A stretch of DNA of 16,094 bases from a virus (lineage: Duplodnaviria; Heunggongvirae; Uroviricota; Caudoviricetes): positions 1 to 16,094 of the IMG/VR virus record IMGVR_UViG_2778261454_000010; one strand, 5' to 3'. The notes under the pieces were generated by a model. That model was given only the letters and a program-made list of their open reading frames with translations, searched no databases and was not told the DNA's origin. This document shows, piece after piece, positions 998-16,094 of the stretch (positions are counted from its first letter, which is position 1; every line of letters begins with the position of its first letter). A program made the translations under genes and the position numbers.

Positions 998-1701
998 ATT
1001 TTACCGTTCTCCAGTTTTTCTCCCTCGCCAAAAAAATCTCCGTGATACTTTCTCCTAGCTTCCATAGAAACAAGGCCTGCAAGCTCAATATCATCGTACA
1101 ATCCAAGGGATAGCTTCCTGCCATCAACGCCGATTGTTACGTACCATTTGGAAAACTTTTTATGCCAACTAACACCTTTAATTCCGCTAGTGTTGTGTGA
1201 ATGAACCTTCTGGTTTCTTGCGTTGTCTGCCCTACTTGCGTTTCTCAGGTTTATCCATCTGTCATCATTTCTTACTCTATTGATATGATCCGCTTCTGTA
1301 GGGAATTTCCCGGGCATATACAGAAATGCAAGCCTTCCTGCTTTATATTCCTTACCATTAATTTTTATATGCCTATATCCAGTGTGATGAATGCACCCAG
1401 CGATATCTCCACACTTAAAACCTCCCTTTGTATTTTTAATCCGAGTAAATACACCTGTATCTGGGTTGTAATGCAGATGCTCTTTCAAGACGTCCTGAGT
1501 TACCAGCGCCAGCACGTTGGCTGGCGTCGCTTCATCGTGAAATGAGTTAAGCGCCGTTATGTCCGCATCAAGCTGGGTGCCTTCAGCGAGTGAGATATCG
1601 AAAAGATCGCCCTCTGGCATCACGCTCAGACGCTCATACGCTCCCGTCGCGTTCAGCGCCGCCGCTTTCATACGCTGCGCCAGTTCTGTTGTCATGCTCA
1701 T
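994..1701 (-). CDS. HNH endonuclease (HNH_3-like motif) with a C-terminal AP2-like DNA-binding segment; phage homing-endonuclease-like
   Basis: ATG at 1699-1701 is preceded by GGGAGG and overlaps the TGA of the upstream 69-aa gene (ATGA). The translation carries ..GYRHIKINGKEYKAGRLAFLY..EADHINRVRNDDRWINLRNASRADNARNQ.. (HNH-type) and ..GIKGVSWHKKFSKWYVTIGVDGRKLSLGLYDDIELA.. (AP2-like). Confidence 0.75.
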   Translation of the reverse strand: MSMTTELAQRMKAAALNATGAYERLSVMPEGDLFDISLAEGTQLDADITALNSFHDEATPANVLALVTQDVLKEHLHYNPDTGVFTRIKNTKGGFKCGDIAGCIHHTGYRHIKINGKEYKAGRLAFLYMPGKFPTEADHINRVRNDDRWINLRNASRADNARNQKVHSHNTSGIKGVSWHKKFSKWYVTIGVDGRKLSLGLYDDIELAGLVSMEARRKYHGDFFGEGEKLENGKI

Positions 1702-1907
1702 GCTGCCTCCCAGCAAATCTGAGTTTTATAGACGCTCTTAACGCGTTGCACTTTTCCGGCAACTTCAAGCTTCTTCAGTCTGCGCAATACGTATGCGGTA
1801 TCGAGAGGTCGGTAGTTATCTCGAAGCCAGTTCGTCACTACGTAGGTCATGCAGCGACCATGCTCATTCAGCACCTGAATGATTTCTTCATCGGTTGGCT
1901 TGTTCAT
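1698..1907 (-). CDS. Small hypothetical protein, 69 aa (possible winged-helix DNA-binding fold, inferred)
   Basis: ATG at 1905-1907 is preceded by CGAGGAG with an 8-nt spacer, directly after the methyltransferase TAA. Its stop overlaps the HNH gene start. The sequence (..MTYVVTNWLRDNYRPLDTAYVLRRLKKLEVAGKVQR..) looks helical and basic. Confidence 0.5.
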   Translation of the reverse strand: MNKPTDEEIIQVLNEHGRCMTYVVTNWLRDNYRPLDTAYVLRRLKKLEVAGKVQRVKSVYKTQICWEAA

Positions 1908-1922
1908 GCTGCTCGCTCCTCG

Positions 1923-2660
1923 TTATTCACCATCACACAGCATGGAGAATGCTGCCGCTGCCACTCTTGGAACTTGTCCATTGCCAAGGGCTTTAATTCT
2001 GTCCACCCGATGGGCCACCCCATGAACCACTCGACCCATTCCGGGTTCAACTGTCCATCCTGGGGTGGCTGCGACCCATCTGGAAGTGGACGCATCTTTA
2101 TTGCACTTGGCAAGTCCGGAGTTCTGCGTAAGCGCTCGCTTGGACAATCGCCCCGTATTGTTGCTTTCGCTGTAGGCCACAATCCACATCCTGTCTCTTT
2201 CATGGGGCGCTCCGCAGTTCGATGCTGAAATACGAAACCACTCACAGCCACACCCCATTTCGGCAAGGTTACCAATGACCACTGCAAGGCCTTTTCCTCT
2301 GAGTCGCGGCGAATTTTCCACGCAGACGAATGCAGGTCGTACCTCACTGACGATTCTCGCCATTTCTGCCCACAGTCCAGAACGGCGTCCATTGATGCCG
2401 GCACCATGACCATTTGCGCTAATGTCCTGGCATGGAAACCCGCCAGATATGACATCAACAATCCCTCTCCACGGCTTTCCGTCAAAACTGCACACGTCAG
2501 ACCAAATCGGGAAAGGGCGGAGAATTCCATCGTTTTGTCGTTGCGCGAGAACTTGTGCTGCGTAGGCATCACGTTCAACTGCGCATACTGTTCGCCAGCC
2601 AAGGAGATGCCCTCCGAGTATTCCTCCGCCAGCGCCTGCGAAAAGAGCCAACTCATTCAC
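1923..2660 (-). CDS. DNA (cytosine-5)-methyltransferase, small phage-type enzyme of about 245 aa
   Basis: GTG start at 2658-2660 with GGAGGT five nt upstream, overlapping the TGA of the upstream ORF. Motifs read in order: I ..ELALFAGAGGGILGG.., IV ..GGFPCQDIS.., VI ..FVCVENSP.., VIII ..GAPHERDRMWIVA.., X-like ..RIKALGNGQVPRVAAAAF... Stop TAA at 1923-1925. Confidence 0.85.
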   Translation of the reverse strand: MNELALFAGAGGGILGGHLLGWRTVCAVERDAYAAQVLAQRQNDGILRPFPIWSDVCSFDGKPWRGIVDVISGGFPCQDISANGHGAGINGRRSGLWAEMARIVSEVRPAFVCVENSPRLRGKGLAVVIGNLAEMGCGCEWFRISASNCGAPHERDRMWIVAYSESNNTGRLSKRALTQNSGLAKCNKDASTSRWVAATPGWTVEPGMGRVVHGVAHRVDRIKALGNGQVPRVAAAAFSMLCDGE

Positions 2661-3015
2661 CGTTACCTCCGCGCAGCTGCCTTGCCAGATATTCAAGAGC
2701 CATTGCCGGAACGCCGACATGTCCTGTGCACGCAAATTTCGTGAGCAAATGCTCAATGGCTTTATCAACACCCCGCGCCTCAGCTTCTCGCAGGATGCTG
2801 TCTGTTGCCGGAGTTTCATGACAGGCACACAGCAATTCATGAATTGTCTGCATATCGACAATATCGCCGTCCGGCTGCTGTGTTAAATTCCACCGCTTAT
2901 AAATCTGGACTGACTCATCAGCCAGTAATATCGCCGCCGACTTAATCGCCAAATTCTCAGCCACCAAAGCCTTCAAATGCTCCTGCAACTCCACACCCTG
3001 TGGACAGTTCGTCAC
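2653..3015 (-). CDS. Hypothetical phage early-region protein, probably 5'-truncated at the 3060-3075 junction
   Basis: The frame is open upstream to 3072 with no ATG; the annotated start is GTG at 3013-3015. The TGA stop overlaps the methyltransferase start. No recognisable motif. Confidence 0.4.
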   Translation of the reverse strand: MTNCPQGVELQEHLKALVAENLAIKSAAILLADESVQIYKRWNLTQQPDGDIVDMQTIHELLCACHETPATDSILREAEARGVDKAIEHLLTKFACTGHVGVPAMALEYLARQLRGGNGE

Positions 3016-3072
3016 TTCACGCGCTTTCTCAATCGTTGAGTGTGCTGCTGTTAGTTCGCCTGCATGGTCGAG

Positions 3073-3314
3073 TTACCGGTCTCACCAATTACCGTGATTG
3101 CGGTAATGGTCTGAAGATTGACCTGGTTACTAACCCTGAACTGCTGGAGAAAGACATCAATGCCGCGCGTTCTGCTGCATGGTTCTATGCCTCCAAAGGT
3201 TGCCTGAAGTACACCGATGACCTGGTGCGCATCACTCAGATTATCAATGGCGGGCAGAACGGCATTAACGACAGACGCGTGCGTTACGCCAAAGCGAAAG
3301 CGGTGATTGCATGA
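3073..3314 (+). pseudogene. Endolysin remnant: C-terminal ~80 aa of a GH19 (chitinase-like) phage lysozyme; catalytic N-terminal part missing
   Basis: The translation ..TGLTNYRDCGNGLKIDLVTNPELLEKDINAARSAAWFYASKGC..ITQIINGGQNGINDRRVRYAKAKAVIA matches the conserved C-terminal block of GH19 endolysins as I recall it. Upstream in-frame sequence (3000-3070) is not protein-like and overlaps the minus-strand ORF. The stop overlaps the spanin start (ATGA at 3311-3314). Confidence 0.6.
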
Positions 3315-3589
3315 GCATTGTAGAAATCATCATTGGTGTCATTGGCGCTATCTGTGTTGCCGCTGCTAGTGGGTTTGGTCTTGGCCACATTCACGGTACC
3401 AGCAAAGCAGAAGCGAAAGCCGATCAACAACGCACTGAAGAAAACGCTGCCGCCATGAAAAAAGCTGCAGATCGTTGTGTGGAAGTCATCAAGGAGACAA
3501 GAGATGTGCAGGAGAATGTTAGTCGCATGCCTGATGACGATGTTGATCGCGAGCTGCGCGAAAACTTCACCCGCCCCGGTGGTGATTGA
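3311..3589 (+). CDS. Rz-like inner-membrane spanin (i-spanin)
   Basis: The N-terminus (MSIVEIIIGVIGAICVAAASGFGLG) is a single hydrophobic TM helix, followed by a charged, helical periplasmic segment. It sits directly after the endolysin remnant with ATGA coupling. Confidence 0.6.
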   Translation: MSIVEIIIGVIGAICVAAASGFGLGHIHGTSKAEAKADQQRTEENAAAMKKAADRCVEVIKETRDVQENVSRMPDDDVDRELRENFTRPGGD

Positions 3590-3716
3590 TACCGGTTGCC
3601 TGTGGGCACGGATTGTCTATCTGACCAACAGCGATATTGACCTGCTGGATAAGCAGACGAAGCGCGACATCCTAGCGCATAACAAAGCGTGGCAGGCGAA
3701 CTGTCAGAAAAAATGA
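3504..3716 (+). CDS. Rz1-like outer-membrane lipoprotein spanin (o-spanin), overlapping the i-spanin in the +1 frame
   Basis: ATG at 3504 with AAGGAG seven nt upstream. The N-terminus MCRRMLVACLMTMLIASC carries a lipobox (I-A-S-C) and the mature part is Pro-rich. It begins inside the Rz-like gene and extends past its stop. Confidence 0.55.
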   Translation: MCRRMLVACLMTMLIASCAKTSPAPVVIDTGCLWARIVYLTNSDIDLLDKQTKRDILAHNKAWQANCQKK

Positions 3717-3731
3717 ACTAATTAATGCAGT

Positions 3732-4319
3732 TTATAAAAAAATCTCTTCTGCGCATAAAAGATAACTTTCGTAAAAAGTTATCCCAAGCTCTGCAATAAC
3801 TATTGGATTTTTAGAATTCACTTCTTGTCCTAAGTGCGACTGAGGAGGGTTGTATGTGATCCCACGGTTACGACATGGAACTGCCTCTACTGAGCTTTGA
3901 GTAACTTCAACTCTCATTGGTGAGCCTGGAACGATTGTTGCACCACCATTACTATCAAATGAAATTGATTTGATGTGAACCATGCCACCTTGCTTTTCTG
4001 GATAGATACTAAACCCGCCAGGAACATATTTAGAGGTATCAGCAATCCCATGATGTGCTGAATTTCTGGCTTGCTTGAGATAGATGAGTAAACTATCAGA
4101 ATCACGCAGGTAGTTTGTTTTTGATGAAAATGAAGGGTATTTCTTGTGCTGCGCAGCAGCTACTTTTATCTTACCGTATACGTTTTCAATGCGGCTCAAA
4201 AAATCGCTCCAAGCCTCATCGTACTCATCATATGACTTAGCATTCTTCATACGCTCAACGCAGCGCTTTGCTCTTACCAATTCTTTTCTTGAAGGAAGTA
4301 AGTCCATTACCGTCACCAT
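3732..4319 (-). CDS. Orphan hypothetical protein (195 aa) in an AT-rich cargo segment; function unknown
   Basis: Long ORF on the minus strand, convergent with the spanin genes. Sampled 60-nt lines in this segment are about 38-42% G+C versus about 55-67% in the structural genes. No signal peptide, TM segment or assignable catalytic motif. Alternative ATG at 4305-4307 has GGTGA upstream. Confidence 0.6.
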   Translation of the reverse strand: MVTVMDLLPSRKELVRAKRCVERMKNAKSYDEYDEAWSDFLSRIENVYGKIKVAAAQHKKYPSFSSKTNYLRDSDSLLIYLKQARNSAHHGIADTSKYVPGGFSIYPEKQGGMVHIKSISFDSNGGATIVPGSPMRVEVTQSSVEAVPCRNRGITYNPPQSHLGQEVNSKNPIVIAELGITFYESYLLCAEEIFL

Positions 4320-4444
4320 TTTTAGTAGAAATGAAAAGCAAAGCTAACTCTTCATGAAACTTTAATCAATTAGCCAATAACCGAACTACAAATTATCCCC
4401 ACAAACGGATAAGACAATCAATATACCCTCTAAAGGATAAAACT

Positions 4445-4645
4445 ATGACGCCATTAGTTCTGACAGCAGAGCAGATAAAATCTCTTGCAGAATTTGCGGA
4501 GCAGGAAGGTCAGCCGTTCTATACCATCACCCACTCAACCATCCCTGAGTTTGAATCAGAAAGTGGTGATGTTGTTCCGGCATATGAAGGGCTGATTGCC
4601 TACTCAGAGTCAGAGGAACACGGCGTTCTTCAGCTCGACGACTGA
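4445..4645 (+). CDS. Small, highly acidic hypothetical protein (66 aa; about 14 Asp/Glu against 1 Lys)
   Basis: ATG at 4445 with AAGGA about seven nt upstream. The translation is MTPLVLTAEQIKSLAEFAEQEGQPFYTITHSTIPEFESESGDVVPAYEGLIAYSESEEHGVLQLDD. First gene of a short operon that ends at the terminator at 4978-5000. Confidence 0.5.
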   Translation: MTPLVLTAEQIKSLAEFAEQEGQPFYTITHSTIPEFESESGDVVPAYEGLIAYSESEEHGVLQLDD

Positions 4646-4684
4646 ACTGCCATTACAGAAGCTCTTCATTCAGGGGCTTCGATA

Positions 4685-4960
4685 ATGACCTTGAAATCTA
4701 TGGCCTTATCCGAGCATACTTTAGCAACCCTCCGTGTTGGTGGGGTGTTAAAGGGGATTGTTATGCTTGATAATTATTTCTACGATAAAAGTGGTTTTGA
4801 GCAAAAAGACGAAGTTAAGCGAGAAAAAGCAGTAGCTGCTGTACTTGAAATCCTTAAAGTTTCTGCTGGTCACTCACCAAGCCACGTAATTATTAGTGCT
4901 CTTAAGAACGAAGTAAATGAAGCAGCGGATGCGATTCAAGGAGCATTGGATAAAAAGTAA
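4685..4960 (+). CDS. Hypothetical protein (91 aa), second gene of the cargo cassette
   Basis: ATG at 4685 with AGGGG eight nt upstream. The sequence is helical and Lys-rich at the C-terminus. Followed 18 nt downstream by a strong intrinsic terminator. Confidence 0.5.
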   Translation: MTLKSMALSEHTLATLRVGGVLKGIVMLDNYFYDKSGFEQKDEVKREKAVAAVLEILKVSAGHSPSHVIISALKNEVNEAADAIQGALDKK

Positions 4961-4977
4961 CTGAGATGAAATAACAT

Positions 4978-5000
4978 AAACCGCCTATGGGCGGTTTTTT
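4978..5000 (+). terminator. Rho-independent terminator
   Basis: Perfect 8-bp stem AAACCGCC / GGCGGTTT with loop TATG, followed by a T-run to 5000. Confidence 0.75.
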
Positions 5001-5136
5001 ACTGCCATCACTGTGGGTAGGCTCATCCTAATAGCAATATCCCCCGCAAGGGATAATTAACGTGATATCCCCGTCGGGGGATAAAATCATATTTAAGCCA
5101 CTGGTATCCGCTGGTGGCTTTTTTATTGGAGTGAAT

Positions 5137-5427
5137 ATGGCATCCAATTCACCGTGGCATAGCCTCTATAATTCCAAGCGCTGGTACCGACTCCGATATC
5201 ACCAGCTTCAGAAGCAGCCTCTCTGCGAGTTCCACCTCCGGCGCAATCAGGTTATAGCCGCCACGATCGTTGACCATATCACCCCGCACAAGGGTAACGA
5301 GGCGCTATTTCATGACCAGGACAATCTTCAGTCACTCTGCAAACGTTGCCACGACTCGGTAAAGCAGAGGATGGAGAAGGGTGGAACGGTCACCGAGTTC
5401 GATAATAAAGGCCGTGTTATCTGGTAA
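5137..5427 (+). CDS. HNH endonuclease, packaging-associated (HK97 gp74-like position next to the terminase genes)
   Basis: ATG at 5137 with GGAG five nt upstream. HNH signature in the translation: ..CEFHLRRNQVIAATIVDHITPHKGNEALFHDQDNLQSLCKRCHDSVKQ... Located immediately upstream of TerS and TerL. Confidence 0.8.
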   Translation: MASNSPWHSLYNSKRWYRLRYHQLQKQPLCEFHLRRNQVIAATIVDHITPHKGNEALFHDQDNLQSLCKRCHDSVKQRMEKGGTVTEFDNKGRVIW

Positions 5428-5439
5428 CAGGAGTAGTTG

Positions 5440-5649
5440 ATGCAAGACATGAAGATTGAATACCGTGATGGGAAGTTGATTGAGTTGAGCATTGATAGCG
5501 TGAGCTTTAAACATGCCACTGCAGTCTCCTTCAATCATGAGGTCGTTGAGATGCTGCCTACCATTACCCTCACATTGCCAATCGGCGTTGGTGATCGTCT
5601 GGTGCCCTCTGGCATACCTCACTCAAGCTTACACGTAATTGAGAAATGA
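5440..5649 (+). CDS. Small hypothetical protein (69 aa) between the HNH and TerS genes
   Basis: ATG at 5440 with AGGAG six nt upstream. No recognisable motif. Confidence 0.4.
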   Translation: MQDMKIEYRDGKLIELSIDSVSFKHATAVSFNHEVVEMLPTITLTLPIGVGDRLVPSGIPHSSLHVIEK

Positions 5650-5769
5650 TATCAATTCTCATATTTATTTTGGTAAGGGAGGGGGTGGGATAAAACTCTG
5701 GTACCAAATTCTTAAAGACCGCGCCCTCAACTCTTTTTTTAAAAACGTCCAGAAAAAAAGGAAAAACCG

Positions 5770-6204
5770 ATGGCACAGCGAGGCAGAAAGTCTCTGGCTG
5801 CGACGTCTGCTGTCTCGTTGCCGGCACTGGCTGAAAGCAGGCTGCAGCCGTCCATTCATCTGAGCGATCCGGAAATTAATGTATGGGTAAGGCTCGTTAA
5901 TGACAATCCAGCTAGTTCATTCACTGAAACTCATCGAGACATGATGGAGATGTACTGCCGCCATGTTGTTCAGGCCAGAATAATCACCACTCAGCTTGAA
6001 GAGTTTGAACTGGAGTGGCTATCGCGCGAGGACGGACTTAAGCGGTACGACAAGCTTCTTGCCATGCGCGAGCGTGAAGTGCGTTCGGCATCTTCACTGG
6101 CAACACGTTTAAGGATCACCCGCCAGGCTACTGCCGACCCAAAAACAGTTGGCCGAGCGCACAACAATCTGGCTCGGGAGAAAAAACCCTGGGAAATTGA
6201 TTAA
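5770..6204 (+). CDS. Terminase small subunit (P27/HK97 gp1-like, by position and N-terminal basic segment)
   Basis: ATG at 5770 after an A-rich AAGGA region. The N-terminus MAQRGRKSLAATS.. is basic. The gene lies directly upstream of the large terminase gene. Confidence 0.7.
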   Translation: MAQRGRKSLAATSAVSLPALAESRLQPSIHLSDPEINVWVRLVNDNPASSFTETHRDMMEMYCRHVVQARIITTQLEEFELEWLSREDGLKRYDKLLAMREREVRSASSLATRLRITRQATADPKTVGRAHNNLAREKKPWEID

Positions 6205-6213
6205 GGCTCTTTG

Positions 6214-7746
6214 ATGGCAAAAAAAAATCTGACAAGAGCCGAGAGAAATATTCTCTGGTGCGAAAGAAATATTGTTATTCCTGAAGGAAAGTTCGTGGGC
6301 CAGCCACTGAAAATGGCTGAGTTCATGAAGGATGATTTTAGGGCTATTTTCGATAACAAGCATGGCACACGTCGCGCAATTATCAGCCGTGGGCGAAAGA
6401 ACGCCAAAACGGTAGAGACCGCCATGCTGATGCTGCTCTACCTGGTGGGGCCGGAGGCGGCGCCGAACTCGCAGCTGTATTCTGCCGCACGCTCGCGTGA
6501 CCAGGCGGCCATTCTGTTTAACCTGGCCTCCAAGATGTGCCGGATGAATCCGGTGCTCATGCAGTATGTGGCGATAAAGGACTCGGCGAAAGAAATTCAC
6601 TGCCCCGAACTGGGTTCTTATTATCGGGCGCTGAGCGCAGAGGCCACGACTGCCTATGGTTTCTCGCCTCGATTTGTCGCGCATGATGAACTGGGACAGG
6701 TTCGTGGGCCCCGTGATCCCCTTTATGAAGCACTGGAAACTGCGACTGCTGCTCAGGATAACCCTATCTCGGTGATTATCAGCACTCAGGCGCCCGATGC
6801 GAGCGATCTACTCAGCCTGCTGATTGATGATGGACTGACCGGTGCTGACCCGCGCACGGTGGTCCGTCTACAGACGGCCCCGGAAGATATCGATCCTTTC
6901 TCCGTTGACGCCATAAGGCTGGCAAACCCGGCCTTCGATGTGTTTATGAACCAGAAAGAAGTGCTTGATATGGCCGCCAGCGCGAAGCGCCTCCCGTCAC
7001 GACAGGCTGAGTTTGAGAACCTTGTGCTGAATCGCAGGGTTGAAGCTAAAAGTCCTTTCGTCAGTCAGACAGTCTGGCACATGAATAAAGAAGAACCCGG
7101 CGAACTGGCAGGGGCTACCGTCTGGGGCGGGCTGGACCTTTCCAGTGTCTCGGACCTTACCGCACTGGTACTCAACACAACCCAGGGTGATGTGCACTGT
7201 AAGTTCTGGCTACCTGAAGAGGGGCTGGCGGACAAGGCGCGTAACGATCGAGTGCCTTATGACATCTGGGCCAGGCAGGGTTTTCTCAATACGACACCCG
7301 GAAAGGCCATTGAATATGCATTTATTGCGCGCGAAATGCGGCGCGTTTTCGACATTTGCAATGTCAGGGCGCTGGCGTTCGACCGTTACAACATGCGTTT
7401 CCTTCGCCCACATCTAATAGACGCAGGATTCACGGAAACTGAGCTCGAGCGGTTCGTGGAATTCGGCCAGGGCTTTGTCTCCATGTCACCTGCGCTGAGG
7501 GAGCTGGAAGCCAAGCTACTCGGAGCGCAGCTTAAACATGGCAACCATCCGATCCTCGAAATGTGCGCCAAAAACGCCACGGTTATTTCTGATCCCGCCG
7601 GAAACCGAAAGTTTGTGAAAGGTAAATCAAGCGGGCGTATCGATGGAATGGTTGCTCTGGCGATGTCAATCGGCGCCCAGACGAGTGATGAGGTGGAGGA
7701 TCCAGGCGACGTCAATGATTTCATTTATAACTTCTTGAGCGTGTAA
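6214..7746 (+). CDS. Terminase large subunit (ATPase plus nuclease)
   Basis: 510-aa product with an ATPase region (..RFVAHDELGQV.. Walker-B-like) and a C-terminal nuclease region. Standard position after TerS. The ATG at 6214 is preferred over the TTG at 6211. Confidence 0.9.
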   Translation: MAKKNLTRAERNILWCERNIVIPEGKFVGQPLKMAEFMKDDFRAIFDNKHGTRRAIISRGRKNAKTVETAMLMLLYLVGPEAAPNSQLYSAARSRDQAAILFNLASKMCRMNPVLMQYVAIKDSAKEIHCPELGSYYRALSAEATTAYGFSPRFVAHDELGQVRGPRDPLYEALETATAAQDNPISVIISTQAPDASDLLSLLIDDGLTGADPRTVVRLQTAPEDIDPFSVDAIRLANPAFDVFMNQKEVLDMAASAKRLPSRQAEFENLVLNRRVEAKSPFVSQTVWHMNKEEPGELAGATVWGGLDLSSVSDLTALVLNTTQGDVHCKFWLPEEGLADKARNDRVPYDIWARQGFLNTTPGKAIEYAFIAREMRRVFDICNVRALAFDRYNMRFLRPHLIDAGFTETELERFVEFGQGFVSMSPALRELEAKLLGAQLKHGNHPILEMCAKNATVISDPAGNRKFVKGKSSGRIDGMVALAMSIGAQTSDEVEDPGDVNDFIYNFLSV

Positions 7747-7748
7747 AA

Positions 7749-9026
7749 ATGGCAGATACCGATTACAGCATTGACCTGCGAACGCGATCGCCATTCTGGG
7801 CGCGCATGGCCTCCATCCTGACAGGGGGCCGCCTTGTGACGCCTGACAAGGGCTCGCAGATGGCAGGAACGTCCGCGCACGGTGTGGTTGGCGACTCCGT
7901 AGTGACTGACGAGCGAAATATGCAAATCAGCACTGTGTGGGCATGCATCAGGCTTATCTCTACCGTGACCGCATCATTACCCCTTGATGTCTACCAGACC
8001 AAAGACAATCAGAGAAGCAAGGTACCTGGCACACACCCTCTCGCGAGGTTACTGCGCTTCCGTCCCAACAATTTCATGACCGCGCTGGAGTTTCGTGAGG
8101 CCATGACCATGCAGCTTTGTGCTTATGGAAACGCCTACGCGCATGTGGAGCGAAACAGCGTCGGCGACGTTATCAGCATGGTTCCGCTGATGAGCGCCAA
8201 TATGGAAGTGCGGCTCAGTGAAAACGGCAAAACCATTATCTACCGCTACCAGCGTGATACTGAATATGCCAATTTTTCGCAGAAAGAAATTTTCCATCTT
8301 AAGGGTTTTGGCTTCAACGGACTGACCGGCCTGTCTCCGCTGGCGTTCAGCGCGAAGTCTGCAGGTGTCGCCATTGCCATGGAAGACAATCAGCGTGAGT
8401 TTTTCGCAAACGGCGCGAAGTCTCCTCAGATTCTGATGACCGATGGCAAGGTGCTTACCAAAGAGCAGCGTGGACAGCTGGAGGAAAACTTCAAGGAGAT
8501 TGCTGGCGGCCCGGTTAAAAAGCGCCTCTGGATCCTGGAGAGCGGTTTTACGACTCAAGCTATTGGCGTCTCTCCTCAGGACTCGGAAATTCTGGCCGCG
8601 CGAAAGTTTCAGGTTGCCGAGCTGGCGCGGTTCTATGGTGTACCGCCGCACCTGGTCGGTGATGTGGAAAAAACAACATCGTGGGGCTCGGGGATTGAGC
8701 AGCAAAACCTGGGCTTTCTCCAGTACACCCTCAAGCCCTATCTCGATCGGTGGGAGTACAGCATTGAACGCTGGCTGGTTAAAGAGTCCGAACAGGGCAC
8801 TATTCACGCTGAGCATAACCTCGATGGGCTGCTGCGCGGTGATTCAACAAGCCGGGCATCGTTTATGCAGATCATGGTTAACACCGGGATCCGAACCGTT
8901 AACGAAGTGCGGCGACTGGACAACCTGCCGCCTCTGCCAGGGGGTGACGTTGCCACCCGCCAGTCGCAGAACGTACCCATTACCGACCTTGGAACAAACA
9001 ATAAGTCCCTCAATGAAGGGACTTAA
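7749..9026 (+). CDS. Portal protein (HK97 family)
   Basis: 425-aa ORF starting 2 nt after the TerL stop. Size, position and sequence character match HK97-type portals. Confidence 0.85.
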   Translation: MADTDYSIDLRTRSPFWARMASILTGGRLVTPDKGSQMAGTSAHGVVGDSVVTDERNMQISTVWACIRLISTVTASLPLDVYQTKDNQRSKVPGTHPLARLLRFRPNNFMTALEFREAMTMQLCAYGNAYAHVERNSVGDVISMVPLMSANMEVRLSENGKTIIYRYQRDTEYANFSQKEIFHLKGFGFNGLTGLSPLAFSAKSAGVAIAMEDNQREFFANGAKSPQILMTDGKVLTKEQRGQLEENFKEIAGGPVKKRLWILESGFTTQAIGVSPQDSEILAARKFQVAELARFYGVPPHLVGDVEKTTSWGSGIEQQNLGFLQYTLKPYLDRWEYSIERWLVKESEQGTIHAEHNLDGLLRGDSTSRASFMQIMVNTGIRTVNEVRRLDNLPPLPGGDVATRQSQNVPITDLGTNNKSLNEGT

Positions 9027-9031
9027 TTTTT

Positions 9032-9712
9032 ATGGGGGCCATGATGCCTGACATTCACAAAACACTGGCTTTTGACCAGACCGAAATTAAGTTCACCGGC
9101 GACGGTGAAAGCGGCATCTTTGAGGGGTACGCCTCCGTTTTTAATAATACTGATTCTGACGGCGATATTATCCTTCCCGGCGCATTCAGCGGTGTTATTT
9201 CCGGTCAGAGCCGTAAGGTGGCGATGTTCTTTAACCATCAGACGCGCGCTATCCCGGTCGGCAAATGGGATTCCATGCATGAGGATGAAAAAGGTTTGTT
9301 TGTCCGTGGGCAACTCACTCCAGGACTAAGCCTCTCTGAAGACCTGAAAGCGGCGATGAAACATGGCACCGTTGATGGGATGTCAGTGGGATTCTCTGTT
9401 GGCCCTGATGATTACACCGTTGGTTCGTCCGGCCTCATCTTCAAAAATATTTCGTATCTGCGGGAAATCAGTGTCTGCACTTTCCCGGCCAACGAGCTGG
9501 CGGGTATCACCGCCATGAAGTGCATCGACAGTATCAAAACCATTCGTGACGCGGAGGCCTGGCTGAGGGATTCAGTCGGCTTAACGCGCGCAGAAGCGCA
9601 GGCCTTTATTGCCCGCGTGAAGTCCGCAGGCCGGAGCGAGTCCGGTAGCGGCGACATTGACGCGCTGGCACAGCGCATAACTTCATTTGCCGCTAATCTG
9701 CGGAATACATAA
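9032..9712 (+). CDS. Prohead maturation protease (HK97 gp4-like)
   Basis: 226-aa ORF between the portal and capsid genes. The N-terminal region (..FEGYASVFNNTDSDGDIILPGAFSG..FFNHQTRAIPVGKW..) is typical of HK97-family prohead proteases. Confidence 0.85.
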   Translation: MGAMMPDIHKTLAFDQTEIKFTGDGESGIFEGYASVFNNTDSDGDIILPGAFSGVISGQSRKVAMFFNHQTRAIPVGKWDSMHEDEKGLFVRGQLTPGLSLSEDLKAAMKHGTVDGMSVGFSVGPDDYTVGSSGLIFKNISYLREISVCTFPANELAGITAMKCIDSIKTIRDAEAWLRDSVGLTRAEAQAFIARVKSAGRSESGSGDIDALAQRITSFAANLRNT

Positions 9713-9723
9713 CGGAGTACCAC

Positions 9724-10887
9724 ATGTCTGAATTAGCAACCCTCGAAAAAGCGATTGAGAATTCACAGAAAGAAGTGAAAGAACTCATCGAAGAGCAGCG
9801 TAAATCCATCAGCCAGAACGGCGAAATCAACAAACAGCTGCAGACCGACCTGACCAAAGCGCAGGAAGAGCTGAAAACCACCGGCTCCCGCCTGTTCGAT
9901 CTGGAACAGAAGCTGGCCGGAAACTCACCTGACCAGACCACCCAGAAGTCCTTTGCGGAGCGCGTTTCTGAAGACCTGATGAAAGGCTGGGACGGCTCCC
10001 GTACCAAAGCGAAAGTCACCAGTTTCGATAAGGCGATCGGTTCTGGCGCTGCATCCGCCGGTGTGCTTGTACAGCCCCAGCAGGTACCTGGTATTCTGAT
10101 GCCGGGCCTGCGTCGCCTGACCGTTCGTGACCTGCTGGCACAAGGGCGCATCACCAGTAACGCGCTGGAATATGTGCGTGAAAATGTGTTCACCAACGCC
10201 GCCGCACCGGTTGCTGAAGGTACCCTCAAACCAGAGAGTAATATCACGTTCACCAAAGAAACAGCGAATGTCAAAACCATTGCCCACTGGATCCAGGCAT
10301 CACGCCAGATTATGGATGACGCCCCGGCGCTGCAGTCCTATATCAACTCCCGCATGATGTACGGTCTCGCGCTGGTGGAAGAGAATCAGATGCTTAACGG
10401 TGATGGCACCGGCGACAACCTCCAGGGGTTGAACGTGGTGGCGAACGAATACGAAACCGCACTTAACGCGACCGGGGATACTGGTGCTGATGTTCTGGCG
10501 CATGCCATCTACCAGGTGTCGCTAAGTGAGTTCGAAGCCGACGGCATCATTCTCAACCCGGCTGACTGGCATCGCATCGCATTGCTGAAGGACGCCAATG
10601 GCAATTACATCCTCGGCGGCCCTCAGGCGTTTGCGTCAAAAGTGCTCTGGGGCCTGCCGGTTGTATCAACAACCGCGCAGACGGCAGGAAAGTTCACCGT
10701 TGGTGCATTTGGCCTGGCGTCTCAGGTGTGGGACCGCATGGATGCCACTATCGAAATCAGTAACCAGGATCGCGATAACTTCGTTAAAAACATGCTGACC
10801 ATTCTGTGCGAAGAGCGTCTGGCTCTGGCGCACTACCGTCCCGCAGCTATCGTCACTGGCGATATTGCGATTTCTTCCGGCGAATAA
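9724..10887 (+). CDS. Major capsid protein (HK97 fold) with N-terminal delta/scaffolding domain
   Basis: ATG at 9724 with GGAG upstream. The first ~100 aa form a charged coiled-coil-like region (delta domain), followed by a capsid-fold region (..AEGTLKPESNITF..). Standard position after the protease. Confidence 0.9.
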   Translation: MSELATLEKAIENSQKEVKELIEEQRKSISQNGEINKQLQTDLTKAQEELKTTGSRLFDLEQKLAGNSPDQTTQKSFAERVSEDLMKGWDGSRTKAKVTSFDKAIGSGAASAGVLVQPQQVPGILMPGLRRLTVRDLLAQGRITSNALEYVRENVFTNAAAPVAEGTLKPESNITFTKETANVKTIAHWIQASRQIMDDAPALQSYINSRMMYGLALVEENQMLNGDGTGDNLQGLNVVANEYETALNATGDTGADVLAHAIYQVSLSEFEADGIILNPADWHRIALLKDANGNYILGGPQAFASKVLWGLPVVSTTAQTAGKFTVGAFGLASQVWDRMDATIEISNQDRDNFVKNMLTILCEERLALAHYRPAAIVTGDIAISSGE

Positions 10888-10895
10888 CAGCAGGG

Positions 10896-10918
10896 CGCGG
10901 TCAGAAATGGCCGCGTTT
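10896..10918 (+). terminator. Weak stem-loop after the capsid gene (possible partial terminator)
   Basis: CGCGG - 10-nt loop - CCGCG followed by TTT. Short stem and short T-tract, so likely low efficiency. Confidence 0.3.
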
Positions 10919-10923
10919 ACGAT

Positions 10924-11166
10924 ATGAAAATTAAAGCTCTCCGTATGTTCTCACATTACCACCTCGGAACTGTATCCCAAGGCGAGAGCCGGGTGGTGAA
11001 GAAAGAGATCGGCGACGCGCTGGTGAAACTGCGCCTTGCCGAAGAGATTGAACCCGAAAAGGCGGAAACTTCCGTTCCTGAAAAGCCTGTAAAAACCAAA
11101 GCCGGGGGTAAAGGTGGAAATAAGCGCGGAGCAGATGGCGCTGATAAAGGCGCATCTGAGGGTTGA
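10924..11166 (+). CDS. Small hypothetical protein after the capsid gene (Lys/Gly-rich C-terminus)
   Basis: 80-aa ORF with no clear Shine-Dalgarno sequence. Its 3' end overlaps the start of the connector gene. Confidence 0.35.
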   Translation: MKIKALRMFSHYHLGTVSQGESRVVKKEIGDALVKLRLAEEIEPEKAETSVPEKPVKTKAGGKGGNKRGADGADKGASEG

Positions 11167-11440
11167 TAGTGACGCTGAAGATTCGCTAATCACCGCTTAT
11201 ACATCAGCGGCCGTCGATTATGTTGAGCAGTTCTGCGACGGCGCGCTGGTGGAATCGTTAACGCCGCCGGAGGAAGGGGAAATGCCACCTCGTGAGATCC
11301 TGTTTACTCCCGGTATCTGGGCAGCAATGCTTTTGCTGATTGCACACTGGTATGCGAACCGCGAAGCAGCAGCGCAGAACCTCACGGAAATGCCTTTAGG
11401 TGTTGAGGCGCTGTTAATACGGCACCGGAGGTGGCACTGA
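11114..11440 (+). CDS. Head-tail connector (gp6-like adaptor) protein
   Basis: Translation ..EISAEQMALIKAHLRVDSDAEDSLITAYTSAAVDYVEQ.. matches the characteristic N-terminus of gp6-like connectors. The start is uncertain: GTG at 11114 or ATG at 11135. Confidence 0.65.
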   Translation: MEISAEQMALIKAHLRVDSDAEDSLITAYTSAAVDYVEQFCDGALVESLTPPEEGEMPPREILFTPGIWAAMLLLIAHWYANREAAAQNLTEMPLGVEALLIRHRRWH

Positions 11441-11500
11441 TGGCATGTTCCGGGTGCGCCGCCCGTCGAGAGTGGCTTAAAAAGTGGATGAAAATCGCCT

Positions 11501-11686
11501 ATGAACGAGCAACAGGTAAAAAATCTGCTGGCAGCAATGACCGCGCAGACCAACGCAATGAACCGCCTGGCGGAGTCAAATGAAGCCCTGGTCGCTTTAC
11601 TCTATCAATCCCTCGCTGATGACATCGAAACGACAACGTTAGATTCCCCGGTGCCGACCTACCTAAGCGGAAAGCCCAGGGGGTAG
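11501..11686 (+). CDS. Small hypothetical head-tail region protein
   Basis: 61-aa helical ORF whose TAG stop is immediately followed by the ATG of the head-closure gene. Weak ribosome-binding site. Confidence 0.35.
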   Translation: MNEQQVKNLLAAMTAQTNAMNRLAESNEALVALLYQSLADDIETTTLDSPVPTYLSGKPRG

Positions 11687-11688
11687 CG

Positions 11689-12021
11689 ATGCAGGCTGGA
11701 AAGCTCAATAAACGAATCACGCTTCAGAAGCCTGTTAAAACCCAGAGCCCTGTTACCGGCGCAGTAGTTAGTGGATGGGCTGATGTGTCTGAGCTTTGGG
11801 CTAACGTTGCCGATTTGTCAGCCCGTGACTTTGTTGCCGCGCAAGCGGGGCAGAGCGAGGTAACAACGCGGATCACTATCCGCTGGCGTGATGATGTCAC
11901 GGATAAGCATCGCATTCTTTACCGTGGGCGTGTTTACGACATTCAGGGTGTACTGGAAGATGATAAAAGCGGACGGGAATATCTGACGCTACCCTGCTCG
12001 CGAGGTGTTAACGATGGCTGA
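11689..12021 (+). CDS. Head closure / head-tail joining protein (SPP1 gp16-like)
   Basis: ATG at 11689 with AGGGGG upstream. The translation ..KRITLQKPVKTQ..TRITIRWRDDVTDKHRILYRGRVYDIQGV..LTLPC.. fits the family pattern. Confidence 0.65.
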   Translation: MQAGKLNKRITLQKPVKTQSPVTGAVVSGWADVSELWANVADLSARDFVAAQAGQSEVTTRITIRWRDDVTDKHRILYRGRVYDIQGVLEDDKSGREYLTLPCSRGVNDG

Positions 12022-12553
12022 TGGCATTGATTTTAGTATAACCGGGGTCGATTCACTTCTGGGGAAGCTGGACAGTATCAGCGATGATCTGCGCCGCCGT
12101 GGTGGTCGGGCAGCACTTCGTAAGGCGGCAAATGTGATTGCCGCTAAAGCCAGAGATAACGCAGCCCGTGTGGATGATCCGCTAACCAAGGAATCGATTA
12201 GCAAAAATATTGTGGCCAGATGGAGCAATGTTACATTCCGAAGAACCGGTAATCTGGCTTTCAGGGTTGGCGTTTTGGGCGGAGCCATTTCGTATGCTGA
12301 TTCAAGAGAAAACAGGCGGAAAGGTCGTGCGGGAAGATTGTATTACACCCCCGGCAATTCACAAAATCCAGGCGGGAATACCTGGTACTGGCGTTTTTTG
12401 GAGTTTGGCACAGAAAATATGCCAGCCCAGCCCATTCTTCGCCCGGCAGCGCAAGGCAGTGTGGACGAAGTGGTAAGCGTATTCGCCTCGGAATACGAAA
12501 AGTCTATTGACCGTGCCATCAGGCGCGCGGCGAAAAAAGGAGTACCCCCGTGA
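12014..12553 (+). CDS. HK97 gp10-like head-tail/tail component protein
   Basis: ATG at 12014 with GAGGTG six nt upstream, overlapping the end of the previous gene. Size and position are consistent with the family. Confidence 0.6.
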   Translation: MADGIDFSITGVDSLLGKLDSISDDLRRRGGRAALRKAANVIAAKARDNAARVDDPLTKESISKNIVARWSNVTFRRTGNLAFRVGVLGGAISYADSRENRRKGRAGRLYYTPGNSQNPGGNTWYWRFLEFGTENMPAQPILRPAAQGSVDEVVSVFASEYEKSIDRAIRRAAKKGVPP

Positions 12554-12915
12554 TTGCGCCGATCTTTATCGTCTGCGCCGCAAGTCCTCCGGTGGTTGCG
12601 CTACTGGGCGGTGACACACTGCGCCTGTATCCGTTCGGCCAGCAGGACGACAACGTGGTCTATCCCTATGTGGTCTGGCAGAACATCACCGGTTCTCCGG
12701 AGAACTACCTTGCCCAGCGCCCTGATGCAGACTTTTTCACGCTGCAGGTGGATGCATATGCCGACACAGTGGATGAAGTGATTGCCGTGGCTACTGCGCT
12801 GCGGGATGCCATTGAGCCGCACGCGCATATCACGCGCTGGGGCGGACAGGAAAGAGATCCCGAAACAAAACGCTATCGCTATTCGTTCGATGTGGACTGG
12901 ATAGTCAATCGATAA
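12550..12915 (+). CDS. Tail completion / tail terminator protein (DUF3168-like)
   Basis: GTG at 12550 overlaps the upstream TGA, with AAGGAG eight nt upstream. 121-aa product in the expected slot before the major tail gene. Confidence 0.55.
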   Translation: MIAPIFIVCAASPPVVALLGGDTLRLYPFGQQDDNVVYPYVVWQNITGSPENYLAQRPDADFFTLQVDAYADTVDEVIAVATALRDAIEPHAHITRWGGQERDPETKRYRYSFDVDWIVNR

Positions 12916-12925
12916 GAACCTTCCC

Positions 12926-12949
12926 AACCGGCCTTGAGCCGGTTTTTTT
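12926..12949 (+). terminator. Rho-independent terminator
   Basis: Stem AACCGGC / GCCGGTT with loop CTTGA, followed by a run of seven T. Confidence 0.7.
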
Positions 12950-12966
12950 ATGACCGGAGATAATAA

Positions 12967-13464
12967 ATGTCTGTATTAACTCAAGGCACACAACTCTTTG
13001 TGCTTGCCAGTGGCGCGGTGAGCGAAATCGAGTGTATCACTGCATTTTCGCCTGGTAGTAACCCTGCCGACCAGATTGAAGACACGTGTCTTTCTGAAAA
13101 GTTTGACCGCTCCTATAAGCGGGGCCTACGAACTCCCGGGACCGCCTCACTCACTCTGAATGCCGACCCAAAAAATACCAGCCACGTGATGCTGCACAAC
13201 CTGTCGATTTCCGATGATGAGAGCGATCAGGATCTGACGTTTGCGATTGGCTGGGCCGATGGTACAGCGTCACCAACAGTTGCTACCGAAGAGGCAAGCG
13301 GTGCTGTTGATGGGCTGGTGCTCCCGGACAGCCGTACGTGGTTTGTTTTTAAAGGTTACGTCTCCGACTTCCCTTTTGATTTTGCAGCAAACACGGTCGT
13401 CTCCACCTCCGCATCTATCCAGCGTTCCGGTTCTGCGGTGTGGGTTCCTAAGGCAGCTTCTTAA
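12967..13464 (+). CDS. Major tail (tube) protein
   Basis: ATG at 12967 with GGAGA upstream. 165-aa beta-rich protein in the position immediately before the G/G-T chaperone genes. Confidence 0.6.
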
Positions 13465-13468
13465 ACTG

Positions 13469-13487
13469 ATGGGGCTTGATGCCCCAT
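13469..13487 (+). promoter_or_regulatory. Stem-loop between the major tail and chaperone genes
   Basis: ATGGGGC - TTGAT - GCCCCAT, a 7-bp perfect stem followed by TTTC; a possible attenuator or partial terminator. Confidence 0.3.
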
Positions 13488-13501
13488 TTCGAGAGACAAA
13501 A

Positions 13502-13987
13502 ATGAAATTAACGCTTGAAGCACTCAAGGAGTCCGGCGCGTTTACCGGCCGTCCGGTTGAGAAAGAGATATCCTGGAAACAGGGCGATAAGAAAATCACT
13601 GCGACCGTGTATGTTCGCCCGATGGGGTATCACACAGCGACGTCCGATGTACTGGCATTTGGGGGTAAGGTGGATGGTGTGGCAGGACGCATTGCAGCAT
13701 CTATCTGCGATGAACTGGGTAAGCCTGTCTTCACCCCGGCAGACATCACTGGTGAGGCCGACCCTGAGCGTGGTGCGCTGGATGGTGGTCTGACGGTTGC
13801 GCTACTGTTGGCTATTCAGGAAGTTAACGATCTGGGAAAGACTTCGAGCTCAGCGCCGAAGACGAATTCTGGTGCGAGCTCGTCCTCAACGGAATCGGAG
13901 GTAAAACGATCGCCGAAGCGCGTGAGTCGCTCTCATTCAAAGAGTCCCAGCTCTGGGCAAAATACCGGGAAAGATATGGAAGCCTGA
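13502..13987 (+). CDS. Tail assembly chaperone G (zero-frame product)
   Basis: ATG at 13502. Contains the slip heptamer G_GGA_AAG at 13834-13840 in the correct phase. The zero-frame sequence after the slip site is Ser-rich and low-complexity. Confidence 0.7.
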   Translation: MKLTLEALKESGAFTGRPVEKEISWKQGDKKITATVYVRPMGYHTATSDVLAFGGKVDGVAGRIAASICDELGKPVFTPADITGEADPERGALDGGLTVALLLAIQEVNDLGKTSSSAPKTNSGASSSSTESEVKRSPKRVSRSHSKSPSSGQNTGKDMEA

Positions 13988-14211
13988 ACCCGATGATGCG
14001 GGTTGAGTGGGGGGCTGGGCTGGTGGCCAGCATGATAGCCAACGTCAACAGAGACCCCAAACATCCACCATTCACTCCGACCGATTTCACACTGCACTTC
14101 ACCAAAGTCAAAGCTGTTGATGGGCCAATCTCGTTATGGGGATCGGCGTTGAAAACACGCCCAGCGGCATGCAGTCGCAGGTTGTTTTCCTCGCTGACCG
14201 CTTTGCAGTGA
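13502..14211 (+). CDS. Tail assembly chaperone G-T fusion, made by programmed -1 ribosomal frameshift at 13834-13840
   Basis: The -1 frame is open from 13840 to the TGA at 14209-14211 and encodes protein-like sequence (..DFELSAEDEFWCELVLNGIGGKTIAEARESLSFKESQLWAKYRERYG..). The architecture matches lambda G/G-T. Confidence 0.6.
13834..13840 (+). other. Programmed -1 frameshift slippery heptamer GGGAAAG
   Basis: Exact X_XXY_YYZ heptamer (G GGA AAG) positioned in the G reading frame; the same heptamer is used by lambda G-T. Confidence 0.75.
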
Positions 14212-14495
14212 CAACGGCTGTCGGCGGCGTGACGACGCTACCGTTCGTTATTCAGAACGGGCAGACGATAATCCGGGATACAGTAATCGGTGATGGAACT
14301 ATCAGCAACGCCAAAATCGGTAACTACATTCAGTCCAATAACTATGTCGCGAACACCAGCGGCTGGCACATCAATAAAGCCGGAACATTTTATATAAATG
14401 GCAGCGCGGGAACCGGTCGGATGGTTATCAGTAATACATTGATTCAGATTTACGATAACAACAACGTTCTGCGCGTTCGTATGGGCTTATGGTAA
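14121..14495 (+). pseudogene. C-terminal fragment of a tail protein (central fibre / host-specificity J-like or tail fibre), with no start of its own
   Basis: The frame opens right after a TGA at 14118-14120, has no Shine-Dalgarno sequence, and encodes ..FLADRFAVTTAVGGVTTLPFVIQNGQTIIRDTVIGDGTISNAKIGNYIQSNNYVANTSGWHINKAGTFYINGSAG.. (beta-rich, fibre-like). It occupies the slot where a tape-measure gene should begin. Confidence 0.35.
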
Positions 14496-14505
14496 GGAGT
14501 TGATT

Positions 14506-14805
14506 ATGCCTCAAGGGGTACAATGCTGGGATGCATCAGGCAATCTTGTCGCTGACATTGGTGATTATAATTGTCGTTATGTGGGCTCTCTGGTTATTTC
14601 AGTCCCTGCAAGTGCGACGGTCGTTACCACAAGTTATGCAGGTGCAACAGCAGCTGGTTACTTTGCGGTGCCAGTATCGGTATCAGCTGGCCGTGAAATT
14701 GGTTATTACTACTGTCGGGCATACGATGGAGGAATAAGAACATTTATTCTTTTAAAATATGCTTATGCCCATACAGTGACTGTTAATGTGTACGCATTTA
14801 TATGA
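14506..14805 (+). CDS. Hypothetical protein (99 aa), first gene of an AT-rich module
   Basis: ATG at 14506 with AAGGAG six nt upstream. Beta-rich, Tyr/Gly/Ala-rich translation. Its stop overlaps the next start (ATGA at 14802-14805). Confidence 0.5.
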   Translation: MPQGVQCWDASGNLVADIGDYNCRYVGSLVISVPASATVVTTSYAGATAAGYFAVPVSVSAGREIGYYYCRAYDGGIRTFILLKYAYAHTVTVNVYAFI

Positions 14806-15443
14806 GCGGATTCCAGTCCTTTAATACAGCAGGCGCGAAGGTGGTCGACTCTGTCTTTTACGGTACTTATTATCGTGATTCAAAAGTTTACTCGACCATT
14901 TCCGATACTGGCTATTTCGAAATTTCAACGCCACTTGGAAACGGTACGGATATGGGATTTGCAATAAACCCTTTTCCTTACAATAACGATTTGCAGTGGT
15001 TCAAGTTCAATAACAATGCGAAGGTTATCTTCGGTTACCCTTACATGACGGCTAATGCGGGAACAATGGCTCGTACTGGCTATGATGTCACAACCACAAG
15101 TGGCTATGTCGATGTGTTCAACGCCCAGGGAAAGCTTGTCTGGTCAGCCGTGACAGCTGCAAAAGTACCGCGCGTGACAGGCTTCTTTGAAATACCTGCA
15201 AATTATGATTTAGATAACACAGCCTATTCACAGAGCATTGGAACAAACAGCTGGTTACTGGCCAGCGATTGTCCGGGGAATCTCAATACTGACGGTACTG
15301 TTTCAGGGTATTCAGGTTTGTTTTTTAAATTCTCGGGAGGAATGTTGCAGGCTGTCTGGATAAATCGAAATCAGGTGTCGTGGGCAAATACCTTAAAGCC
15401 ATACGGACTGAAAATCCCATTCGCTATTCTGCCGAATCTATAA
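14802..15443 (+). CDS. Hypothetical protein (213 aa), Tyr/Asn/Gly/Thr-rich, beta-rich, no signal peptide
   Basis: Translationally coupled to the upstream gene. Sampled lines are about 32-40% G+C. Followed by a strong terminator. No assignable motif. Confidence 0.55.
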   Translation: MSGFQSFNTAGAKVVDSVFYGTYYRDSKVYSTISDTGYFEISTPLGNGTDMGFAINPFPYNNDLQWFKFNNNAKVIFGYPYMTANAGTMARTGYDVTTTSGYVDVFNAQGKLVWSAVTAAKVPRVTGFFEIPANYDLDNTAYSQSIGTNSWLLASDCPGNLNTDGTVSGYSGLFFKFSGGMLQAVWINRNQVSWANTLKPYGLKIPFAILPNL

Positions 15444-15476
15444 CGATATAGTCGGTTCAAACATTTATTAAACTTC

Positions 15477-15500
15477 AAACCCGCTCCGGCGGGTTTTTTT
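15477..15500 (+). terminator. Rho-independent terminator
   Basis: Perfect 8-bp stem AAACCCGC / GCGGGTTT with loop TCCG, followed by a run of seven T. Confidence 0.75.
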
Positions 15501-15515
15501 ATGTCTGGAGTAAAT

Positions 15516-16094
15516 ATGATTTATAACACCGGAACCATCAGCATCAACGGTAATACCGCAACAGGCACCGGAACGAACTGGACAGCGGCGGCGAGCCAGA
15601 TTCGCGTTAGCCAGACGATTATTGTCATGTCTAACCCAGTTCAGATGTTCCAGATTTCATCCGTGAATAGCGCCACGTCAATGACGGTAACACCTGCTGC
15701 ATCACCGTCGCTGAGCGGCCAGAAGTACGGCATTCTGGTATCAGACAATATCTCGGTTGATGGGCTGGTGCAGGCCATGTCTCAGCTCATTAATGAGTAC
15801 GACGAGAATATCGGAGCATGGGAGACGTTCGCCAGCACCTCAGCGAACCAGCTGGTCACTGTGACAATCAACGGCACCAGCCTCAGCATTCCGGCCATCG
15901 GCGGCCTCGCCCGGAAAGGGGCAAACAGCGATATCACAGAGCTGAAAGGGTTAACTACAGCACTGAGTATTGCCCAGGGGGGAACCGGCGCAAAGACAGC
16001 CGCAGACGCTCGCACAAACCTCGGTTTAGGAAGTAGCTCAACTCTTGACTATGTTTCAACACTTTATGAAACGGGTAATTCTCAAAAAGCTTTA
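15516..16094 (+). CDS. Tail fibre protein, N-terminal part (runs off the window)
   Basis: ATG at 15516 with GGAG five nt upstream; the frame is open to the window end (193 codons). Contains the tail-fibre-type motif ..LSIAQGGTGAKTAADARTNLGLGS... This ORF is not in the supplied track because it has no stop inside the window. Confidence 0.65.
   Translation, partial: MIYNTGTISINGNTATGTGTNWTAAASQIRVSQTIIVMSNPVQMFQISSVNSATSMTVTPAASPSLSGQKYGILVSDNISVDGLVQAMSQLINEYDENIGAWETFASTSANQLVTVTINGTSLSIPAIGGLARKGANSDITELKGLTTALSIAQGGTGAKTAADARTNLGLGSSSTLDYVSTLYETGNSQKAL

Follow-up and report, generated by a model that had tools for sequence, protein, structure and literature searches.

Evidence for a recent 9,228-bp deletion in the tail operon of a defective HK022/HK97-like prophage of Escherichia coli

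The HK97-like lambdoid siphoviruses HK022, HK140 and mEp235 (Hendrixvirinae) carry the genes for the head-tail connectors, the tail terminator, the major tail protein and the G/G-T chaperone one after the other, and in the HK022-type order these are followed by the tape measure gene (TMP), M, L, K, I, J, a gp25-like gene, a gp26-like gene and stf. The first part of this order is the same in the stretch of 16,094 nt analyzed here (positions 1 to 16,094 of the IMG/VR record IMGVR_UViG_2778261454_000010, hereafter the window), and the order onward is matched by an intact sibling prophage that is described below. The window shares 79-84% nucleotide identity with the three phages between positions 11815 and 14136, and 73-75% over the first ~215 nt of a remnant of gene J (14136-14350), but it lacks the 8.4-8.9 kb that lie between the two matching points. 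It also differs from them in that cor is missing between its gp26-like gene and stf. From terminase to capsid, the head module has more in common with Klebsiella phages and with the prophage of E. coli F467 (83-84%). The closest relative in a complete genome (L002; E. coli F467, NZ_OY754409.1, 1618255-1655736) is 84% identical over window positions 3073-14136; it is a full prophage at a different site, between yejO and tRNA-Pro/yejM, with umuDC-like polymerase V genes at its right end.

The second group of described systems comprises the cryptic prophages of E. coli that were formed by deletion (PMC6379469, PMC7744054). The window is likewise an integrated lambdoid element, inherited with the chromosome and carrying several internal deletions that truncate genes, and it has likewise lost regulation, replication, lysis and tail-tip functions. 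Unlike them, it is very young, and the genes that it kept are identical to those of a complete phage. Because of this identity, no statement can yet be made on selection acting on the kept genes.

In the tail interval the features described here lie on the plus strand. The major tail tube gene (12967-13464; 165 aa) is intact, matches PHROG 158 (major tail protein, E = 1.4e-33) and Pfam Phage_TTP_11, and is 83.6% identical at the nucleotide level to HK022 gp12. The gene of tail assembly chaperone G (13502-13987; 161 aa; PHROG 1749, E = 4.5e-55) is also intact and as long as HK022 gp13. The slippery heptamer G GGA AAG for a -1 G-T frameshift is located at 13834-13840, the same heptamer as in lambda G-T. 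It has the phase of the G frame (phase 0) and lies within the T frame, which is open from 13828; the signal for frameshifting has thus been kept intact. A second GGGAAAG near the end of G (13967-13973) was discarded as a frameshift site, since its phase does not fit that of G. In the G-T fusion, the T part (13840-14211; Pfam Phage_tail_T, E = 2.7e-5; PHROG 5297, E = 9.4e-16) is native up to 14136 and continues with 24 foreign codons, which are J-derived sequence read out of frame, to a TGA at 14209-14211, where the preliminary description had placed the end of the G-T frame. In the intact sibling T ends with ...GPISLEEARASWT and in the window with ...GPISLWGSALKTRPAACSRRLFSSLTALQ, each followed by the stop codon. 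The predicted G-T product of the window thus reads ...GPISL and then 24 foreign residues that replace the last 8.

The next frame is open from 14121 (a TGA occupies 14118-14120) to the TAA at 14493-14495. It had been described from the letters alone as fibre-like and as lacking the context of a start codon. The first part is borne out, since the ORF of 119 aa gave hits to Pfam Phage_Tail_Tip (E = 1.8e-33, over positions 37-135 of the 139 in the profile) and to 'central tail fiber J' (PHROG 31; E = 3.8e-30), and these identify it as the C-terminus of the central fibre J and not as a side fibre. The second part holds only in so far as no Shine-Dalgarno sequence was found ahead of the first ATG, in the upstream context gggccaatctcgttATG; the ATG itself exists, at 14136, and is the native internal Met1028 of J. 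The remnant (14136-14495) covers codons 1028-1146 of 1146, i.e., 119 codons. As the J remnant has no ribosome-binding site, its translation is improbable. At 14164-14178, a short way into the J-derived sequence, a weak terminator-like hairpin was observed (GCGGCATGCAGTCGC, with a T-rich run behind it); J of the intact sibling has it too, and hence it was not made by the deletion.

Downstream of the remnant, a 99-aa gene (14506-14805; PHROG 7961, E = 3.1e-19) is preceded by a good Shine-Dalgarno sequence, taaggag. It is the counterpart of HK022 gp25, shares its position after J with HK022_25 and HK140_022, and is intact and 100% identical to the gene of the sibling. It is followed by an intact 213-aa gene with a DUF8377 domain, the counterpart of HK022 gp26 (14802-15443; PHROG 4524, E = 4.9e-44; Pfam DUF8377). 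The exact 213-aa protein occurs in 42 blocks of the sequence collection, from intact as well as deleted prophages. A terminator-like hairpin with a T run (15477-15496) lies upstream of the side tail-fibre gene, and a rho-independent terminator is annotated at the equivalent place in HK140. The stf-like gene itself (15516-16094; PHROG 1591, E = 2.3e-68) runs off the window after the N-terminal 193 of its 444 codons; in related loci the full 444-aa gene carries Phage_tail_C_2. The sibling has the gp25-like, gp26-like (DUF8377) and stf-like genes in identical form. The tail operon of the window thus keeps the major tail tube gene, G/G-T with its in-phase heptamer and the gp25-like/gp26-like/stf order. 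As had been noted from the open reading frames, no tape-measure ORF lies between G/G-T and the fibre gene at 15516, where the plus-strand ORFs are of only 119, 99 and 213 aa. M, L, K, I and a full-length J are likewise missing from the window, and all of them are present in the sibling.

The left tail module was compared with HK022, HK140, mEp235, mEpX2 and the complete prophage of E. coli F467. Nucleotide identity was 79-93%, and the similarity of all five relatives ended at window position 14136, within the T part of the G-T chaperone. From 14136 on, the relatives matched again, now with the 3'-terminal 360 nt of J, the gene of the central tail fibre; this stop and resumption was seen with HK022, HK140, mEp235 and the F467 prophage. 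Position 14136 corresponds to HK022 position 8431, 27 nt before the T-frame stop at 8458, and the similarity resumes at 17314 in HK022 (J, 14137-17688), at 16901 in HK140 (J, 13820-17275) and at 35749 in the F467 locus (J, 32311-36108). In these relatives 8.4-8.9 kb separate the two matching points, and the genes of the tape measure, M, L, K and I, together with most of J, lie in between. The synteny comparison with intact HK97-like relatives that the preliminary description had proposed found the TMP-to-J segment present there and missing here.

Look-ups of the exact 213-aa and tail-tube proteins in draft assemblies led to a single chromosomal site with contigs of two types. The intact and the deleted form are both integrated between yeaH and yeaI of E. 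coli; yeaH-yeaG-mipA-yeaE-yeaD-gapA lies to one side of them and yeaI-yeaJ-yeaK to the other, and the host flank shares 99.9% identity with E. coli yeaH-yeaG-mipA-yeaE-yeaD. The intact sibling was found in GCA_012619805.1 (loci L004 and L012), GCA_903972445.1 (L007) and SRR6068312 (L008); among 5,426 complete E. coli genomes, none carried the window at a coverage of at least 80%. In the intact loci both arms are 100% identical to the window, and the sibling differs from it by a tail segment of 9,228 extra bp between the arms; in GCA_012619805.1 it additionally has a cI-to-endolysin region that is absent from the window. Its tail genes encode a TMP of 806 aa (Tape_meas_lam_C), a Phage_min_tail protein of 112 aa, a Phage_tail_L protein of 251 aa, a K-like JAB/NlpC-P60 protein of 236 aa, a KilA-N protein of 169 aa, a protein of 137 aa, an I-like protein of 196 aa and J of 1146 aa. 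The KilA-N and 137-aa genes, between the K-like and I-like genes (L012 15604-16614), lie inside the deleted segment; their position is taken by small 'moron' genes in HK022 and by a 141-aa gene in the relatives L015 and L018.

Window positions 3073-14136 correspond to L012 107-11170 with a single mismatch in 11,064 nt and no gaps, positions 14135-14236 to L012 20397-20498, and positions 14135-16094 to L004 9334-11293 with zero mismatches. When L012 107-11170 and 20399-20498 were joined in silico, the window was recreated with one mismatch in 11,164 nt. The loss therefore amounts to exactly 9,228 bp (L012 11171-20398), with the junction at 14136/14137, within the 8-10 kb of tail genes that had been estimated in advance. 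The lost segment accounts for the final 8 codons of T and for residues 1-1027 of J, with the genes of the 806-aa tape measure, M, L, K, the KilA-N protein, the 137-aa protein and I in between. The absence of divergence between the flanks and the intact sibling indicates that the tail deletion is recent. Over 11.3 kb of chromosomal flank, 5 SNPs separate the intact carrier L007 from the deletion carriers; hence, the host lineages of the two forms are very close.

The junction itself (14135-14137, without strand) reads CTCGTTA/TGGGGATC. The parent left site is ...CTCGTTA/GAGGAAGCC, the parent right site ...GCGGCGGGTA/TGGGGATCGG, and the window ...CTCGTTA/TGGGGATCGG. The left arm extends to 14136 and the right arm starts from 14135-14137, because TA (14135-14136) is common to both parent sites; the microhomology is 2 nt on sliding to the left and 0 on sliding to the right. 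Longer homology was sought at both parent breakpoints and none was found beyond TA. We consider it about 97% probable that a single deletion by illegitimate recombination, within the tail operon of an E. coli prophage of the HK022/HK97 type, has left this interval as its scar. In the proposed event, illegitimate recombination would have joined a point 27 nt before the T stop to codon 1028 of J through the 2-nt TA microhomology, and this single event would have taken out 9,228 bp of the tail operon. An overlap of 2 nt would fit replication slippage as well as a break repaired by end joining, and does not separate the two.

Lambdoid phages are mosaic, and the relatives L015, L018 and L020 pair the same tail genes with different head modules, so that the tail-tip genes might have been swapped with another phage, leaving a viable phage with tail genes elsewhere. 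Modular exchange of this kind should be discounted almost entirely: there is no foreign DNA at the junction, where T abuts J and both derive from the same sibling, and the immunity, replication and lysis genes are gone too.

A contig that was collapsed or mis-joined, with the full tail operon present in the real genome, would be the alternative to a deletion, judged here from assembled sequences. The 26-nt junction string was, however, found in 19 loci from 12 samples (GCA_002518125.1, GCA_964205775.1, GCA_037105485.1, GCA_041382475.1, GCA_029738555.1, ERZ28599506, JGI 3300056440, SRR31598949, SRR13870767, SRR31374166, SRR13870911 and ERR13910457), which come from four public sources (NCBI, ENA, JGI and Logan) with differing assemblers, and the parent sites share 2 nt only, which leaves no repeat to collapse. 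One Logan contig (L028) starts just 47 nt upstream of the junction, which might speak for an artefact; its first 47 nt are, however, the T-side sequence of the deleted form, so that this contig too has the junction. The intact left and right strings co-occurred only in L004, L007, L008 and L012 among the loci compared, and in the mosaic relative L020, the locus of which stops short of J, the intact left string was found by itself. The exact 119-aa protein of the remnant is indexed in 32 blocks of the sequence collection. The junction string had no match in genome contigs with one genome per species, the E. coli representative being without the deleted form, and a plasmid search with window positions 13950-14520 gave no match. 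An identical junction in 19 loci from 12 samples and four public sources indicates that, as far as sequence data allow, the deletion is real and not the assembly collapse that the preliminary description had considered; an artefact is extremely improbable.

The tail deletion is not the only lesion. A second deletion junction is found at 3072/3073 (region 3000-3314), where the intact sibling L036 matches the window from 3073 onwards only. About 9.7 kb of L036 upstream of this point are absent from the window, with the genes for a cI-like repressor, Cro, a CII-like protein, replication proteins, MT-A70, RusA, Rha/ANT and DUF968, and with those for a Q-like antiterminator, a protease, two holins and the N-terminus of a GH19 endolysin. 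The endolysin is present in the window as a fragment only, with a weak Glyco_hydro_19 match. Window positions 2986-3072 are common to other deleted carriers and had no match in the 10 kb of L036 compared. A 250-aa ORF on the minus strand (1904-2656) had no Pfam match in our scan; a 265-aa call at this position in another carrier is listed with PF00145 (DNA_methylase), and the DNA of 1939-2660 is 91.6% identical to methyltransferase genes of Salmonella phage S9-5.

At the left end (region 1-997), positions 1-682 equal the 3'-terminal 682 nt of an integrase gene of 1,140 nt (L039 7792-8473), base 1 being the first base of the stop codon, and the excisionase gene and the N-terminus of the integrase are absent from the window. 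The following 62 nt (683-744) had no match in L012, L036, L037 or L039, and the locus L032 bears out the integrase arrangement of the window at 100% from base 679. L037, which has the same tail deletion, carries another integrase lesion: in a comparison of L037 6697-7164 with L039 7792-8931, an internal loss of L039 7898-8471 was found that leaves a 155-aa Arm-binding fragment. One of the two breakpoints of this loss (about L039 8472) is within a base or two of the integrase breakpoint of the window (8473). The preliminary description had seen a cryptic prophage with two further lesions, and both the deletion at 3072/3073 and the truncated integrase agree with it.

Other carriers of the same tail junction have lost different pieces. 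In L017 (GCA_029738555.1) int-xis is joined directly to window position 3349, and in L021 (GCA_964205775.1) everything to the left of window position 9263 is lost (terminase, portal and part of the protease), as is 10481-11186, inside the capsid gene. Together the carriers are a young decay series in one E. coli lineage. The deletion is probably inherited vertically in this lineage, in which the prophage is still shedding further pieces.

In the window itself, the block from terminase to tail tube (3073-14136) has 0-1 mismatches and no gaps relative to the intact sibling, in keeping with the earlier claim of an intact head and packaging module. The complete head, packaging and connector module and the cos/HNH-terminase system are retained, and the gene tables list the head set of capsid-forming satellites (cf-PICIs): HNH, TerL, portal, Peptidase_S78, Phage_capsid, Phage_connect_1 and Phage_HCP. 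The element resembles a cf-PICI in having HNH, terminase, portal, protease, HK97-type capsid and connectors without a complete tail or holins (PMC10085698). It might therefore be a product of design and not of decay, i.e., a tail-less satellite that forms its own heads and takes its tails from a helper phage. In favour of this, the genes for terminase, portal, protease, capsid and head-tail connectors are undamaged and remain collinear with their counterparts in the functional sibling, and the element is, like cf-PICIs, without holins and most of the tail genes (PMC10085698). In the cf-PICI model of SatelliteFinder, however, tail and holin genes are forbidden components (PMC10085698), and here the tube, tail terminator and G/G-T genes, the J remnant and stf are kept. 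Both breakpoints interrupt genes (T, J and the endolysin), a complete phage has identical flanks, the integrase is cut short, and the element differs from a cf-PICI in its origin by recent, truncating deletions of a phage. Nor was an AlpA/MerR-type regulator, a primase or any other Pfam match to a regulator or primase-replicase found among the seven ORFs scanned in window positions 1-4319, a scan that covered small ORFs in part; the matches were only the integrase catalytic domain (of the truncated gene), HNH_3/AP2 and the weak GH19 fragment. The head module is not preserved among the carriers either, since L021 is without terminase, portal and part of the capsid gene, and no sign of its preservation was found across the carriers compared. 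A satellite nature is thus very unlikely. There is a slightly better, though still slim, chance that the doubly deleted element may be expressed during infection or induction of a related lambdoid phage, package its own or host DNA and gain helper tails. If so, it would be a snapshot of a capsid-forming satellite or transducing remnant arising from a phage by two deletions.

On the preferred reading, a truncating deletion in a phage, the consequences for the element can be drawn from tail assembly in lambda, where the tail is nucleated by the tip complex together with the tape measure. With the tape measure gone, and the tip proteins (M, L, K, I and J) as well, no tail initiator would form, and we infer that the surviving tube, terminator and chaperone genes would be unable to make a tail. 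Relative to the complete relative, the element lacks essential genes of the lytic cycle, namely TMP to J, cI, cro, the replication genes, Q, the holins and the N-terminus of the endolysin. It is a cryptic (defective) prophage in decay, of a kind already known and shaped by ordinary illegitimate recombination. In annotation, the interval should be treated as a deletion junction with two pseudogenes (the T-end fusion and the J remnant) and the prophage as defective; beyond this, the finding matters little. Since the intact parent and further-decayed derivatives are present in public E. coli assemblies with identical flanks, they form a clean, datable series, and the locus could be used to measure how fast a prophage is dismantled and by which kinds of junctions.
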